Shown in pieces: positions 53,701 through 55,573 of a stretch of DNA of 64,000 bases (the stretch's first letter is position 1; each line of letters begins with the position of its first letter). The stretch spans positions 63,922,001 to 63,986,000 of the forward strand of contig OZ024747.1 in assembly GCA_964016885.1 (NCBI GenBank), in the 5' to 3' direction. A program made the translations under genes and the position numbers. The DNA comes from Eledone cirrhosa. Its lineage: Eukaryota. The notes beneath the pieces are model-generated. The model ran no database searches. It saw only the letters and a program-made list of their open reading frames with translations, and had not been told where the DNA came from.

Positions 53701-55573
53701 GTTGCCCCCCCCCCACACACACACAGACACACACATACACCTCCACTTCATGTTCATAATATATTTATTTCATTGTTTAAAATTTCAAACATAGTGCATG
53801 GTTTTTTACTTCTGATATTTCAGTTTCGTTTTTTTTAAAATTGCAACCAAGAACAAGATTCACTTAAGTCACATGTACATTTTCAAGCTCCATTTTTTTT
53901 TTCATTAAAAAATGTCAGTCATTTTCTACTGTTTGGTATCTTCTTGTTTCGTTATATAAAACTCTCACCTTGCAAAAAAAAAAAAAAAAAAAAAAAAAAA
54001 AAAAAAACATAATTTTAACAATTGATGTTCATATTTCTGTATTCAGTTAATACAGGTCAGGTATGTGACTATCAGTGTAAATTATTTGGATGCTGGGGCC
54101 CAGATGCCGAAGACTGTATTGACTGCATCAACTACAGAGTAGAGAGAACTGGCAAGTGTGTTCCATCATGTTGGAATGTCACTATGGTATATGAAGGGGA
54201 ACAGAATACATGTAAGACATGCCATGAGGAATGTAGTGCTGGATGCTCAGGACCAGTAAGTCTTTTACTATTACTTTTTAAAATCCTCCTTCAGTTGTTT
54301 CTCATTGTTCTATCATACATTTTCCTTATACTTAAATATAAGCCGACACCCTATTTTATATCTGAGCCAAGGCAGCTAATCAACTCATTATGTTTTGATG
54401 GTGCAGTTTGGAAATTTGCAAGAATGGAGAATATATTTATGAAGTTTTAATATTTTGATATTTAAAGTTTTCAAGTGTATGTACCTATATTTAGAATGGA
54501 GTAGGGTTAAAATATAACCTATTATCAATGGAAGAACAGTCAGAAAAGATAAGAGGGAGAGAAATAAAGGAATAGGGTGTAAATCATATGATGAGAGATG
54601 GGACAGGCTTAGAGAGAGAGAAGAAAGAGGAAATGAGAATGATACAGCAGAAAAGTTGACATGAGGAAGTAAGCATGATATAAAGGAGAAAGTTTGACAA
54701 ATGTAAAATAAATAAAGAACTCGAGCATTGTAATTACCTCTTCAGCTTCCTTCTAACCACATGATTTCATGTGGAAGGAAGTGTCATATATTTAAGATTG
54801 CATTTGAGATTCCTTCAATTTTATGAAAATGTTTACACACACATCAGCTCCAATTCATATCGTATCAAGTTATATATATATATATACATATGAACTCATC
54901 AGGAATGTCCTGATGATTTCATACAAATGAAACAGTTCAAATCCTGTAGAAATCATTCATATATATAATAAAGTTGCCCTATACTCTATCAACATATTGA
55001 GTACCTTATATATATAGATAGATATAGATATATATATATATGTAAACAACATGATATGAAATGAATTGGAGTGATGAGTTTTCAACTTTTCTGTATTTAT
55101 CGTTGTTGTGGTGTATGTATTGTCACTGCCTTCAGTCGTTTTTCTCGGTGTCACACTTTTTAGCTGTTGTGTTTACTCTGGACAGTAATGTGTTAACATC
55201 TCGTTCCATGAGTGCTTTGTGATTGCCTCAAACAACTCAAATAATATCTGCTATATGGTAGCTAGCACTTCTATTTATACCTTATATAATATATATATAT
55301 ATATATATATATATATATATATATATATATAGAGAGAGAGAGAGAGAGAGAGAGAGAGAGAGAGAGATAGAGAGATGCACACATATATATGTTTTGGTAA
55401 ATCAATTCAATCTATTTCATGTTTCATTGCAGGGAGCAAACCAGTGTCATTCCTGTTTAAATGTTAAATTCAAGAACAGCTGTATTAAAAAATGTCCAAG
55501 GAAAATGATTCGAAATTCTAAAGGTATTTGTAAATCCAAAAAGCGAGGATCTAGAAAAGACCGAAAGAGGTAA
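5425..55573 (+). CDS. EGFR-like: EGFR/ErbB-family ectodomain gene (L1-CR1-L2-CR2), 11 exons in window, ~590 aa; 5' signal-peptide exon not seen; no TM/kinase exon seen
   Basis: Exons 5425-5781, 8283-8414, 9945-10028, 12516-12637, 34428-34566, 35199-35315, 36229-36334, 43997-44158, 44876-45078, 54047-54255, 55433-55573 join via AG/GT sites with compatible phases into one open frame. Motifs [55 protein letters not shown] and NLCYANT are collinear with EGFR domains I-IV. A Cys-rich region after L2 (rather than FnIII) excludes the insulin-receptor type. Confidence 0.92.
6251..6460 (+). mobile_element. piggyBac-type MITE (~210-220 bp); other copies 9675-9895 (-), 12755-12961, ~35575-35902 (SINE-interrupted), 51049-51268
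   Basis: TTAA|CCCTTT...AAGGG|TTAA termini; shared core aaccggccatatccagccagaattctctcacctctttctgttcaaac in five copies. Confidence 0.82.
6650..7070. repeat. (GGT/GAT/GTT)n low-complexity tract
   Basis: Degenerate trinucleotide repeats. Confidence 0.9.
7405..7750. mobile_element. Head-to-head inverted repeat (~115-bp arms), probable Penelope-type pLTR remnant carrying a hammerhead-like motif
   Basis: Arms ~7405-7520 and ~7628-7748 are reverse complements; TA-rich flanks. Confidence 0.7.
7634..7696 (+). ncRNA. Type I hammerhead-like motif (U3 core variant, AUU triplet)
   Basis: ttactgc-TTGATGA-stem II(ggtcat..atgact)-GAAA-tatata-TT-gcagtga; stem I ttactgc/gcagtga; palindromic stem III. Confidence 0.55.
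7772..8260 (+). mobile_element. Two tandem copies of the abundant tRNA-derived SINE (~220 bp, (TAT)n tail). Further copies at ~2885-3040(-), 8530-8730, 10421-10600, 10657-10755(-), 13842-14055, 26326-26520, 28318-28510, 35768-35885(-), 36918-37075(-), 37735-37850(-), 38428-38590(-), 39346-39800, 40980-41200, 43537-43730, 45117-45540, 46690-46820, 48450-48875, 57897-58320
   Basis: A-box-like TGGCAGTATCGG, B-box GTTCAAATCC, body gccgaggttaactttgcctttcatccttacggggtcgataaaataaagtaccag, 3' gccttgtgcctaaagtagaaacaattatt. Confidence 0.88.
8283..8414 (+). CDS. EGFR-like: EGFR-like exon B (end of L1): [27 protein letters not shown]...EKAK
   Basis: Acceptor gacag|AA, donor AAAT|gtaagt, phase 1-1; matches the EI..G.V...N..LC...TI.W motif. 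Confidence 0.9.
9270..9530 (-). mobile_element. tRNA-derived SINE, second head family; related heads at 10270-10395(-), 41570-41680(-), 11290-11450(+)
   Basis: Reverse strand reads ggaggcacatggcttagt..(A box)...ggttcgattcc (B box)...gtgttcatgagcaaaacactt. Confidence 0.7.
9945..10028 (+). CDS. EGFR-like: EGFR-like exon C (CR1): [28 protein letters not shown]
   Basis: Acceptor ctctag|GT, donor ACAC|gtgagt, phase 1-1; C..C...C...CWG.G...CQ pattern; not in the ORF track. Confidence 0.88.
10598..11062 (-). mobile_element. CR1-clade LINE 3' end, interrupted by a SINE fragment
   Basis: Same sequence as 42220-42669 and 56295-56629. Confidence 0.75.
11654..11780. mobile_element. Inverted repeat (~60-bp arms) of a dispersed family also at ~28070-28210, 35055-35150, 44395-44445; carries the GAAAC-stem III-GUC half of a hammerhead
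   Basis: gaccccgacggctgagct..gccg/atttcga recurs; reverse strand reads GAAACGGCT-tgagctc-AGCCGTC-ggggtc. Confidence 0.6.
12516..12637 (+). CDS. EGFR-like: EGFR-like exon D (furin-like CR1): [41 protein letters not shown]
   Basis: Acceptor ttccag|AG, donor TAT|gtatgt, phase 1-0; hallmark [13 protein letters not shown]. Confidence 0.92.
13170..13370 (-). mobile_element. Degenerate 3' fragment of the R4/Dong-like LINE
   Basis: ccttgctgttcccagtaggca...gtgttccaaaaa...ttctttaaccagcctgggaagct matches 29975-30065. Confidence 0.65.
14254..14790 (-). mobile_element. Two tandem 3' fragments of the Tx1/L1-like LINE
   Basis: Reverse complement of 33330-33714; 3' ends abut (TAA)n. Confidence 0.8.
15025..16705. 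repeat. 15-bp minisatellite GGTGGTTGT(GTTG/ATTT)GT, ~110 copies
   Basis: Visible tandem unit with two main variants; source of the GGC-, poly-V and W-rich ORFs. Confidence 0.97.
16825..17092. repeat. (CT)n-rich polypyrimidine tract
   Basis: Direct. Confidence 0.9.
17590..17890 (+). mobile_element. tRNA-derived SINE with RTE-derived 3' tail and (GAT)n; near-full copy at 40588-40955(-), weaker copies at 11085-11240 and 55830-55975
   Basis: B-box gagttcaattc; 3' ccacccttgcaagcagggaaaagtggacgtaaaa(atg)n is almost identical to the 3' end of the adjacent RTE LINE. Confidence 0.82.
17891..20895 (-). mobile_element. RTE-clade LINE, 5'-truncated, APE endonuclease + reverse transcriptase, two premature stops
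   Basis: ORFs 19678..20886 ([30 protein letters not shown]), 18826..19662 ([33 protein letters not shown]) and 17914..18816 ([22 protein letters not shown]) are all in one frame; (GAT)n tail. Confidence 0.95.
21209..21294 (+). ncRNA. Hammerhead-like motif (U3 variant, long stem II, palindromic stem III, GUC)
   Basis: gtctc-TTGATGA-gtt...aac-GAAACTACCGGTAGTC-aagac; mismatch at the first stem I pair. Confidence 0.45.
21617..21780 (-). mobile_element. Copy of the hammerhead-bearing pLTR-like family (core mutated GAAA>TAAA)
   Basis: Reverse complement of 27879-28007; adjacent to (TA)n. Confidence 0.7.
22037..22079 (-). ncRNA. Minimal type I hammerhead-like motif
   Basis: Reverse strand: gtca-CTGAAGA-g-GTCACA-gaatg-TGTGAC-GAAA-gaac-TT-tgac; 6-bp stem II, stem I gtca/tgac. 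Confidence 0.55.
22166..22822. repeat. ~105-bp direct repeats (22166-22270, 22721-22822) bracketing ~450 bp, within (TA)n
   Basis: tatactatattatattttgagaataa...ctccaagaaaaggggcatttccgagcagttaaatacattaaaatatatgataa twice. Confidence 0.8.
23370..24240. repeat. (ACC)n-based compound microsatellite
   Basis: Direct; source of the poly-T/P/H and poly-V/G ORFs. Confidence 0.95.
24587..24815. repeat. (CA)n/(TA)n/(TG)n compound microsatellite
   Basis: Direct. Confidence 0.95.
27821..28007. mobile_element. Near-perfect 108-bp palindrome plus unique 3' extension; hammerhead-bearing pLTR-like element in (TA)n
   Basis: Centre gaag|cttc at 27874/27875; one mismatch between arms; family members at 21617, 54893, 60340. 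Confidence 0.8.
27873..27923 (+). ncRNA. Type I hammerhead ribozyme motif, GUA triplet (predicted cut after 27917)
   Basis: agcttc-CTGATGA-tTTC(tcac)GAAt-GAA-ACAG(ttctagtc)CTGT-A-gaagct; stem I 6 bp, stem III 4 bp, complete core. Confidence 0.72.
28560..28730. repeat. (ACACT)n-type pentamer repeat
   Basis: Direct. Confidence 0.9.
29884..32732 (-). mobile_element. R4/Dong-like (restriction-like endonuclease) non-LTR retrotransposon, 5'-truncated and frameshifted
   Basis: [12 protein letters not shown], [68 protein letters not shown]...NRPD..V.D; both ends abut (TTA)n. Confidence 0.9.
32746..33865 (+). mobile_element. Tx1/L1-clade LINE 3' portion (zf-RVT) with 3'UTR, followed by a second 3'UTR; related pieces at 29700-29868, 38683-39290(-), 46330-46655
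   Basis: ORF 32992..33459: [11 protein letters not shown]...CPRC...[11 protein letters not shown]....LW; ends AATAAAGAAA.C(ATT)n. Confidence 0.8.
33884..34371 (-). mobile_element. Short 3' copy of the R4/Dong-like element (REL endonuclease region)
   Basis: ORF 33958..34347 [16 protein letters not shown]...DVACPFD...KINRYQDL...IPIVIGALG...[14 protein letters not shown]; flanked by (TTA)n on both sides. Confidence 0.88.
34428..34566 (+). CDS. EGFR-like: EGFR-like exon E (CR1, dimerization-arm exon): [46 protein letters not shown]
   Basis: Acceptor tttccag|GCC, donor CCAG|gtaatg, phase 0-1; cysteine spacing matches EGFR VCRKF..ATCKDTCP...GATCVKKCP. Confidence 0.88.
34680..35050. repeat. (CAT/CAC)n followed by (CA)n/(TA)n
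   Basis: Direct. Confidence 0.9.
35199..35315 (+). CDS. EGFR-like: EGFR-like exon F (end of CR1): [39 protein letters not shown]
   Basis: Acceptor ctatag|CG, donor AAAG|gtaacc, phase 1-1; CV..CP...C.PC..CPK pattern. Confidence 0.86.
36229..36334 (+). CDS. EGFR-like: EGFR-like exon G (start of L2): [36 protein letters not shown]
   Basis: Acceptor ttctag|AG, donor AAGG|gtaagc, phase 1-2; VHAGNID..K.C..V.G.I.I...TF.G motif; not in the ORF track. Confidence 0.88.
38050..38250. repeat. 48-bp tandem repeat (~4 copies), resembling the internal repeat of the RTE-tailed SINE (cf. 29285-29430, 40705-40810)
   Basis: ttacagagtg recurs at 48-bp spacing. Confidence 0.75.
38683..39290 (-). mobile_element. 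Tx1/L1-like LINE 3' fragment
   Basis: ORF 39011..39313 ([33 protein letters not shown]) is homologous to 32992..33459; (TAA)n at the 3' end. Confidence 0.82.
42220..42669 (-). mobile_element. CR1-clade LINE 3' end with duplicated 3'UTR and (ATT)n tail
   Basis: ORF 42479..42667 [10 protein letters not shown]...[21 protein letters not shown]...SFK, the typical CR1 ORF2 C-terminus. Confidence 0.82.
43306..43465. mobile_element. Tc1/mariner-pogo-type MITE (160 bp)
   Basis: TA|CCGTATTTCCCAGTGCCAAAGAC ... GTCTTTGACACCGGGAAATACGG|TA: ~23-bp TIRs with TA flanks. Confidence 0.8.
43997..44158 (+). CDS. EGFR-like: EGFR-like exon H (L2): [30 protein letters not shown]...[12 protein letters not shown]
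   Basis: Acceptor tttcag|G, donor ACT|gtgagt, phase 2-2; LDIL..(V/I).EIT.FL.I and NL.II.G motifs. Confidence 0.9.
44876..45078 (+). CDS. EGFR-like: EGFR-like exon I (L2): [44 protein letters not shown]...DRIAC
   Basis: Acceptor ttctag|A, donor TGTC|gtaagt, phase 2-1; within ORF 44826..45164. Confidence 0.92.
47430..47815. repeat. 47-bp minisatellite, ~8 copies
   Basis: ccccacaatggtatcca(a/t)aggta(a/t)ggttg(c/a)tatac.. recurs at ~47-bp spacing. Confidence 0.9.
50395..50830 (+). pseudogene. Decayed Penelope-like element ORF (RT thumb, Zn-linker, GIY-YIG endonuclease)
   Basis: Hand translation: [14 protein letters not shown] (~50409), [18 protein letters not shown] (~50615), [28 protein letters not shown] (~50701); broken by stops and deletions. 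Confidence 0.68.
51797..51841 (-). ncRNA. Minimal type I hammerhead ribozyme, unit 1 (GUA triplet)
   Basis: aacggtg-CTGATGA-tAGCT(aaca)AGCTt-GAA-ACTAGT-A-catcgtt: 7-bp stem I (one G.U), 4-bp stem II, palindromic stem III. Confidence 0.8.
52263..52307 (-). ncRNA. Minimal type I hammerhead ribozyme, unit 2
   Basis: Identical to 51797-51841. Confidence 0.8.
52729..52773 (-). ncRNA. Minimal type I hammerhead ribozyme, unit 3
   Basis: Identical to 51797-51841. Confidence 0.8.
53319..53363 (+). ncRNA. Minimal type I hammerhead ribozyme, inverted copy
   Basis: aacggtgCTGATGAtagctaacaagcttGAAActaGTAcatcgtt read directly on +. Confidence 0.8.
54047..54255 (+). CDS. EGFR-like: EGFR-like exon J (CR2/domain IV): [27 protein letters not shown]...[15 protein letters not shown]
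   Basis: Acceptor attcag|TT, donor CCA|gtaagt, phase 1-0; TGQVC...C...GCWGP...DC..C as in EGFR domain IV. Confidence 0.92.
54893..55008 (+). mobile_element. Diverged copy of the 27821 hammerhead family (core intact, stems I/II weakened)
   Basis: CTGATGA-tttcatacaaat-GAAACAG-ttcaaatc-CTGTA-gaaat; between (TA)n tracts. Confidence 0.65.
55433..55573 (+). CDS. EGFR-like: EGFR-like exon K (last seen): [46 protein letters not shown]
   Basis: Acceptor ttgcag|GGA, phase 0. In-frame TAA at 55571-55573, but a possible phase-2 donor AG|gtaaat overlaps at 55569/55570, so the 3' end is ambiguous. Confidence 0.82.
   Translation, partial: GANQCHSCLNVKFKNSCIKKCPRKMIRNSKGICKSKKRGSRKDRKR

Follow-up and report, generated by a model that had tools for sequence, protein, structure and literature searches.

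Soluble decoys of EGFR known so far are products of splicing or shedding, whereas dedicated decoy genes have been described for the insulin receptor, and Argos, the secreted trap of EGF ligand in Drosophila, has an unrelated fold and is not derived from the receptor. The Drosophila protein SDR is a kinase-less paralogue of the insulin receptor (InR) that binds ligand and antagonises InR, and together with holometabolan DR2 it represents a dedicated, lineage-wide, kinase-less L-domain paralogue of a receptor tyrosine kinase (RTK) standing beside the canonical receptor (PMC7253209). Soluble EGFR isoforms sequester ligand and are reported as decoys (PMC13107152, PMC5343918); p110 sEGFR, herstatin and p85 sHER3 are ectodomains without transmembrane helix or kinase that end in a unique C-terminus, p110 sEGFR being cut within domain IV. 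A looser parallel is offered by the IRLD proteins of C. elegans, extracellular L-domain proteins without kinase, of which HPA-1 and HPA-2 modify EGF signalling (bioRxiv 10.1101/2021.06.07.447366). Here we describe a gene of the cephalopod Eledone cirrhosa that spans a 64,000-nt stretch of contig OZ024747.1 (assembly GCA_964016885.1, positions 63,922,001 to 63,986,000; hereafter the window), extends beyond both its ends, and encodes an EGFR ectodomain that lacks transmembrane helix and kinase and ends in a strongly basic tail. We refer to it, after its predicted product, as the soluble gene; positions on the contig carry the prefix C7.

Like SDR, the soluble gene occupies a kinase-less locus of its own beside canonical genes, is expressed, and has orthologues in four named species and in a further protein cluster (P0002). 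In contrast to SDR and DR2, which belong to the insulin receptor family of insects, it belongs to the EGFR family, and its tail is basic and its dimerisation arm remodelled. The vertebrate isoforms arise by splicing, intronic polyadenylation or shedding and share their gene with the full receptor, whereas the Eledone gene is a separate locus with a changed arm and an identity of 38-40% to its canonical paralogues. The IRLD proteins form a large, weakly homologous and genus-restricted family, unlike the single-copy Eledone gene with its full I-II-III-IV layout and EGFR introns. Pfam domains, PDB matches (the best by sequence being Drosophila EGFR 3ltf, E 3e-103), introns and tree all identify an EGFR-type L1-CR1-L2-CR2 ectodomain, which shares with canonical EGFR/ErbB receptors domains I-IV, the cysteine pattern, the fold and the 11 introns from exon 2 to exon 12, but the gene has none of the further Cys-rich modules, transmembrane helix, kinase domain, C-tail and arm with conserved Tyr that mark an EGFR receptor kinase.

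The gene model, which was guided by orthologues, comprises 13 exons at C7:63904003-64002701 with GT-AG boundaries throughout and an open reading frame (ORF) of 650 aa that is intact across all exons and closed by TAA (Table 1). In the initial annotation the exon starting at 55433 was read through into basic sequence and ended at a TAA at 55571-55573; the read-through stands, while this TAA is intronic and part of the donor AG|gtaaat. Two sequencing runs were aligned to 55376-55755, X1 with 88 million letters and X2, a DNA-size run. A single X1 contig (2329 nt, depth 75.6) was found there, and it covers 55433-55570 only. Upstream, the contig runs on into sequence that ends exon 11 (..54255); downstream, its loose end matches a single site in the genome (3.0 Gb), at C7:64002615, which would be 80615 if the window numbering were continued, at an acceptor preceded by a polypyrimidine tract and AG. 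The contig joins exons 11, 12 and 13, its length being made up of 69 (leader) + 1728 + 138 + 394 nt, covers the 3' untranslated region as far as a (TA)n repeat near C7:64003008, and has both its computed ends within microsatellites, as expected of a contig covering the full ORF. Run X2 is unspliced across 55569/55570. Since the X1 contig is spliced, we infer that this run, which is not registered as RNA, is RNA-derived, a judgement made from splicing alone. A processed retrocopy is an unlikely origin of the spliced contig, given that the downstream 30-mer of the junction is unique and that only three EGFR-type loci were found.

The phase-2 donor, proposed earlier as plausible, is therefore used, and the further exon suspected beyond the window exists 25 kb on. 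It supplies neither transmembrane helix nor kinase: exon 13 contributes KLSPRKKKKRTSKK and 14 further residues before the stop, and only lengthens the basic tail, so that splicing from 55569 does not lead into a signalling receptor. With seven consecutive A in exon 13 (L013:6650-6656), the C-terminus exceeds that of the Octopus models by nine residues and closes with FNVYIKSILAPKHH instead of IHRLH; with eight A at this place the ending would resemble theirs, and the homopolymer reflects either a real frameshift or an error of the assembly. When the post-600 parts of nine canonical EGFRs were searched against the 208 kb downstream, no match with E<1e-5 was obtained, compared to 100 in the locus of a canonical paralogue used as control, and the same search returned one weak match only (E 0.033, with a stop), in agreement with the absence of a recognisable transmembrane or kinase exon first noticed within the window. 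Likewise, a genome-wide search listed no kinase at C7:63.9-64.2 Mb among the matches given (150 of 152; 147/513 candidates scored). The nearest downstream gene found encodes a convergent Cys-loop receptor, about 48 kb past exon 13; of 208 candidate ORFs in the flanks, the 148 longest were scanned with Pfam.

The product of about 650 aa has a signal-peptide-like start, as judged by hydropathy and by eye, followed by EGFR domains I-IV, with IV shortened, and the basic tail. Hydropathy peaks at residue 4 (top Kyte-Doolittle window 1.94), and the structure model of an orthologue (P0122) contains a helix at 2-22. No transmembrane helix was found in the ORF among Kyte-Doolittle 19-mers after residue 35, the best of which scores 1.44. 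No kinase domain was found in the ORF or its orthologues, and Pfam gives L, furin-like and GF_recep_IV domains only for P0122 and P0002. Within residues 33-612 none of the canonical cysteines is lost (46 conserved), and the mature chain carries five N-glycosylation sequons. Three more cysteines, C125, C128 and C449, bring the mature core to 49; they are present in the window protein and in all three orthologues checked but in none of nine canonical sequences, and may form an extra disulfide or leave a free thiol. Of the 41 residues behind the last cysteine, 20 are K/R and one is acidic, where both canonical paralogues continue with the cysteines of IC.xCHxxCDSG, just as the initial annotation had noted for EGFR in general. 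Among the 43 kinase-less proteins compared, nine have 16 or more K/R within their final 35 residues, all nine from the soluble clade described below. The composition of the tail is of the type that would favour retention by heparan sulfate, as in the long VEGF-A forms, and its several KR/RR pairs, which also occur in the arm, may allow release by proprotein convertases. Among the kinase-less proteins we also came across a 586-aa EGFR-like model (P0190, a Logan record) outside the cephalopod clade, with a shortened arm without Tyr and a hydrophobic end, which may be an intron read-through or an independently truncated receptor.

Two separate canonical EGFR loci were found on the same contig 23 Mb away (C7:87.07-87.16 and 87.52-87.57 Mb), both carrying transmembrane, kinase and C-tail exons. 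A search with exon 2 gave three EGFR-type loci in the genome, the soluble gene being single-copy; an L-domain locus on C6 was identified as an insulin receptor. Since each of these 11 introns agrees in place and phase with its counterpart in the canonical paralogues, the soluble gene is an EGFR duplicate with an ancestral donor. The intron that corresponds to the one at 55569 is likewise of phase 2 in both paralogues and interrupts them at CDS|G, three codons before that point; in the soluble gene this donor was kept and the end of exon 12 turned basic, while the terminal exon 13 is unlike any of their exons. A splice-derived soluble EGFR isoform was rejected on the grounds of the separate locus and the absence of transmembrane and kinase sequences in the 208 kb downstream. 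The idea of a dedicated EGFR paralogue without kinase or membrane anchor and with a polybasic C-terminus, put forward from the window alone, is supported by the 13-exon model and the spliced transcript. The canonical paralogues themselves share a block of 1,089 nt at 98.6% identity, intron included (L043:5210-6292 and L034:4984-6072), which surrounds the first domain IV exon, of which paralogue A has a partial duplicate, and which reflects either gene conversion or assembly chimerism. Several of their kinase and tail exons are 94-98% identical, and the domain II intron measures 42 kb in paralogue A (L037-L042, C7:87.078-87.120 Mb) compared to 1.4 kb in paralogue B.

Orthologues were found in two clusters, which matched the exon 2 protein at 92% and 83% identity, whereas the other 118 matches listed did not exceed 58%; with the full-length protein (44 matches), only these two cephalopod-type clusters exceeded 37%. 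The first cluster contains NCBI models of 642 aa each from Octopus vulgaris, O. bimaculoides, O. sinensis and Argonauta hians and two fragments, named EGFR-like or erbB-4 in the database, and the second (P0002) contains seven Logan proteins, five of them full length (647-701 aa), about 75% identical to the Eledone protein. The exon 12-13 junction and the basic tail are present in all full-length members of both clusters, the longest of the 13 members having 701 aa, and identity across the soluble clade is 77-93%. In a tree of ectodomains (38 rows out of 50, after exclusion of 12 that were near-duplicate, partial or long) the soluble clade has a support of 100/100 and a stem of 1.3 substitutions per site. 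It is sister to the cephalopod canonical EGFRs with a support of only 84/77, and a position outside all mollusc canonical EGFRs was not rejected by the approximately unbiased test (p 0.198). From the shape of the tree, the P0002 cluster would represent a more distant cephalopod.

The soluble protein is better conserved than the canonical receptors, and most so in the ligand-binding L domains. It is 93% identical to its orthologue in O. vulgaris, compared to 82% for canonical paralogue B, and 93% in O. bimaculoides, compared to 72% for paralogue A. Against the distant P0002 pair, domains I and III both show 82% identity (68% and 56% for canonical paralogue B), while domain II shows 68% (canonical 73%) and the arm 48% (canonical 65%). 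The sequence is already public under the label of a receptor tyrosine kinase ('erbB-4-like'). We found no description of this gene in the literature searched, most subscription journals and supplements being outside its scope. A metazoan EGFR survey considered kinase-bearing sequences only (PMC4914847), and for this reason genes of the soluble type would have been filtered out. A separate EGFR-ectodomain gene, better conserved than the neighbouring receptors, points to lineage-specific control of EGF range in cephalopods; it is a single-copy target for knockdown, and nature provides in it a test case for ligand binding by an ErbB ectodomain whose dimerisation arm does not work.

The remodelling of this arm goes beyond what had been noticed before. 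At 34470-34550 the sequence reads ...KLTFQDIC where canonical receptors have CP...Y[ND]..T[FY]...N...K[YF].YG..C. The arm Tyr is kept in 42 of the 43 other rows of the alignment and is replaced by Asn in all seven soluble rows, the Asn sitting inside a basic R[NS]NR[KR]R motif. The dimer contacts of ErbB1 include Y246 and Y251 (PMC4359325), and the residues matching both are lost in the soluble arm. Judging by these replacements, a canonical dimer probably cannot form, and the basic arm may provide a second polyanion-binding patch or a convertase site. An AlphaFold2 model of P0122 (83 rows, mean predicted local distance difference test (pLDDT) score 83.5) has a low-confidence tail and no arm hairpin, with pLDDT below 50 at 288-296, while a control Mytilus EGFR folded on the same 83 rows has a confident hairpin (pLDDT 96-97); the low arm values may reflect alignment mismatch instead of real disorder, and so in part may the contrast with Mytilus. 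The closest folds of the P0122 model are extended ErbB ectodomains (template modelling (TM) scores of 0.70-0.73, compared to 0.36-0.43 for tethered forms), which is a weak hint, as the method is biased. In domain III, vertebrate EGFR and the soluble protein have the F-x-GD motif and the ALAVV strand in common.

We consider it somewhat better than an even chance (about 0.55) that the gene encodes a secreted, heparan-sulfate-tethered and non-dimerising EGF-ligand trap. The signal-peptide-like start, the 46 conserved cysteines and the sequons predict secretion, the selective conservation of the L domains makes binding of EGF-type ligands likely, and the 20 K/R of the last 41 residues together with the basic arm patch make retention in the matrix likely. 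The whole ectodomain (I-IV) would then be released from the cell without anchor or kinase, and its tail would hold it near the source cells through heparan sulfate, where it would bind EGF-type ligands without pairing with signalling receptors and, as a local trap, limit or shape EGFR signalling, until proprotein convertases perhaps free it at the KR/RR pairs of the tail. As to its history, the odds seem to us about level that a cephalopod EGFR duplicate dropped everything after domain IV, gained a new basic exon via the ancestral donor and turned its arm into a second polyanion patch, to become a matrix-anchored, non-dimerising brake on EGF and the EGFR counterpart of SDR.

Several observations weigh against such a trap. 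The stem is long (1.3) and identity to the paralogues is 38-40%, so that the protein may by now prefer other ligands. In domain III the Gln of the L.IQ motif, EGFR Q384, is present in all nine canonical rows but is Ser in all four soluble rows examined, and the new C128 maps to the strand of domain I that faces the ligand in EGFR, ligand-face positions having been assigned from EGFR-EGF structures. The tail could also be read as a nuclear localisation signal, which it resembles, and transcript support in Eledone cirrhosa comes from one contig of one run in one study. 

Finally, binding of a ligand need not by itself lower signalling, as a protein held in the matrix can also keep ligand in store or present it. 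A ligand carrier or matrix depot, which stores, spreads or presents EGF-type ligands to the canonical receptors and whose complexes are freed by convertase cleavage of the tail, would show the very anatomy that suggests a trap, including the KR/RR pairs of tail and arm, and VEGF-A splice forms do vary in diffusibility via heparin binding (PMC5343918). However, SDR is an antagonist (PMC7253209), and of the dedicated RTK paralogues without kinase whose function has been studied it comes closest; nor was any receptor-docking feature seen. We regard a carrier as unlikely, though as the likeliest of the alternatives to the trap. Rather improbable, in our view, is a neofunctionalised extracellular protein with another partner or with a matrix or adhesion role, whose tail may act on membranes, polyanions or nuclei. 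The long stem, the three new invariant cysteines and the Gln to Ser change in domain III would fit such a shift, and conservation above that of the canonical receptors is not necessarily expected of a protein tracking the same ligands, but all four domains, the 46 canonical cysteines and both L domains are kept, and the best fold matches are still extended ErbB ectodomains.

Soluble isoforms of EGFR are able to form heterodimers with the full-length receptor (PMC13107152), and tethering by the tail would raise the local concentration of the soluble protein, which could then act as a dominant-negative partner, pairing unproductively with canonical EGFR by way of domain II. We think this quite improbable, since the counterparts of the ErbB1 contacts Y246 and Y251 (PMC4359325) are lost, and the arm is the part least conserved towards distant clade members and forms no hairpin in the model. 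That the transcript is a short isoform of a full receptor whose transmembrane and kinase exons lie further downstream was worth considering with an ancestral donor, introns of up to 25 kb and one contig only, yet this is very improbable in view of the 208 kb downstream without transmembrane or kinase similarity, the listed kinase matches described above, the convergent Cys-loop receptor gene, and 13 cluster members none of which exceeds 701 aa. A decaying duplicate or annotation artefact, to which the last residues (FNVYIKSILAPKHH instead of IHRLH) might point, is contradicted by conservation (77-93% across the clade), the intact 13-exon GT-AG ORF and the spliced transcript, and is extremely improbable.

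Table 1. Features of the soluble gene and of its nearest downstream neighbour (window positions unless prefixed).
Feature	Position	Strand	Content	Basis
Exon 1	upstream of window, C7:63904003-63904099		ATG and signal-peptide-like hydrophobic stretch, residues 1-32	tblastn of orthologues, gene model
Intron 1, 3' part	1..5424	+		gene model
Exon 2	5425..5781	+	L domain I; clade-specific C125 (5700), C128 (5709)	
Exon 3	8283..8414	+	end of domain I	orthologue tblastn, gene model
Exon 4	9945..10028	+	domain II (furin-like Cys-rich)	orthologue tblastn, gene model
Exon 5	12516..12637	+	domain II	orthologue tblastn, gene model
Exon 6	34428..34566	+	domain II; remodelled dimerisation arm 34470-34550	gene model, alignment, structure models
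Exon 7	35199..35315	+	end of domain II	orthologue tblastn, gene model
Exon 8	36229..36334	+	start of L domain III, last residues ..TFKG	orthologue tblastn, gene model
Exon 9	43997..44158	+	domain III	orthologue tblastn, gene model
Exon 10	44876..45078	+	domain III; clade-specific C449	gene model, alignment
Exon 11	54047..54255	+	domain IV	gene model; 3' end = upstream loose end of X1 contig
Exon 12	55433..55569	+	final Cys module of domain IV, followed by the first half of the basic tail (55532-55569)	
Splice donor, phase 2, used	55570..55575	+	gtaaat	X1 contig
Intron 12 (25,044 nt), 5' part	55570..64000	+		
Exon 13 (terminal)	beyond window, from C7:64002614 (L013:6614)		KLSPRKKKKRTSKKFNVYIKSILAPKHH; stop C7:64002699-64002701 (80699-80701 in extended window coordinates)	
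Cys-loop ligand-gated ion channel subunit exons	L018:4551-5375, L020:2065-2637	-		best match nicotinic alpha-3, E 1.5e-34

Repeats were noticed in several introns of the soluble gene. Intron 5, of 22 kb, contains interrupted retrotransposon ORFs at 17917-20895 (-), 30147-32771 (-) and 32959-33456 (+), which we take to be LINE-like. Tandem repeats of great length and arrays of (TA)-rich microsatellites lie within introns at 1-2175, 14992-16743, 58700-60300 and 62200-62810, and intron 10 harbours an inverted-repeat element at 51555-53598 with near-identical segments at 51562-51903 (+), 52960-53316 (+) and 53257-53598 (-).

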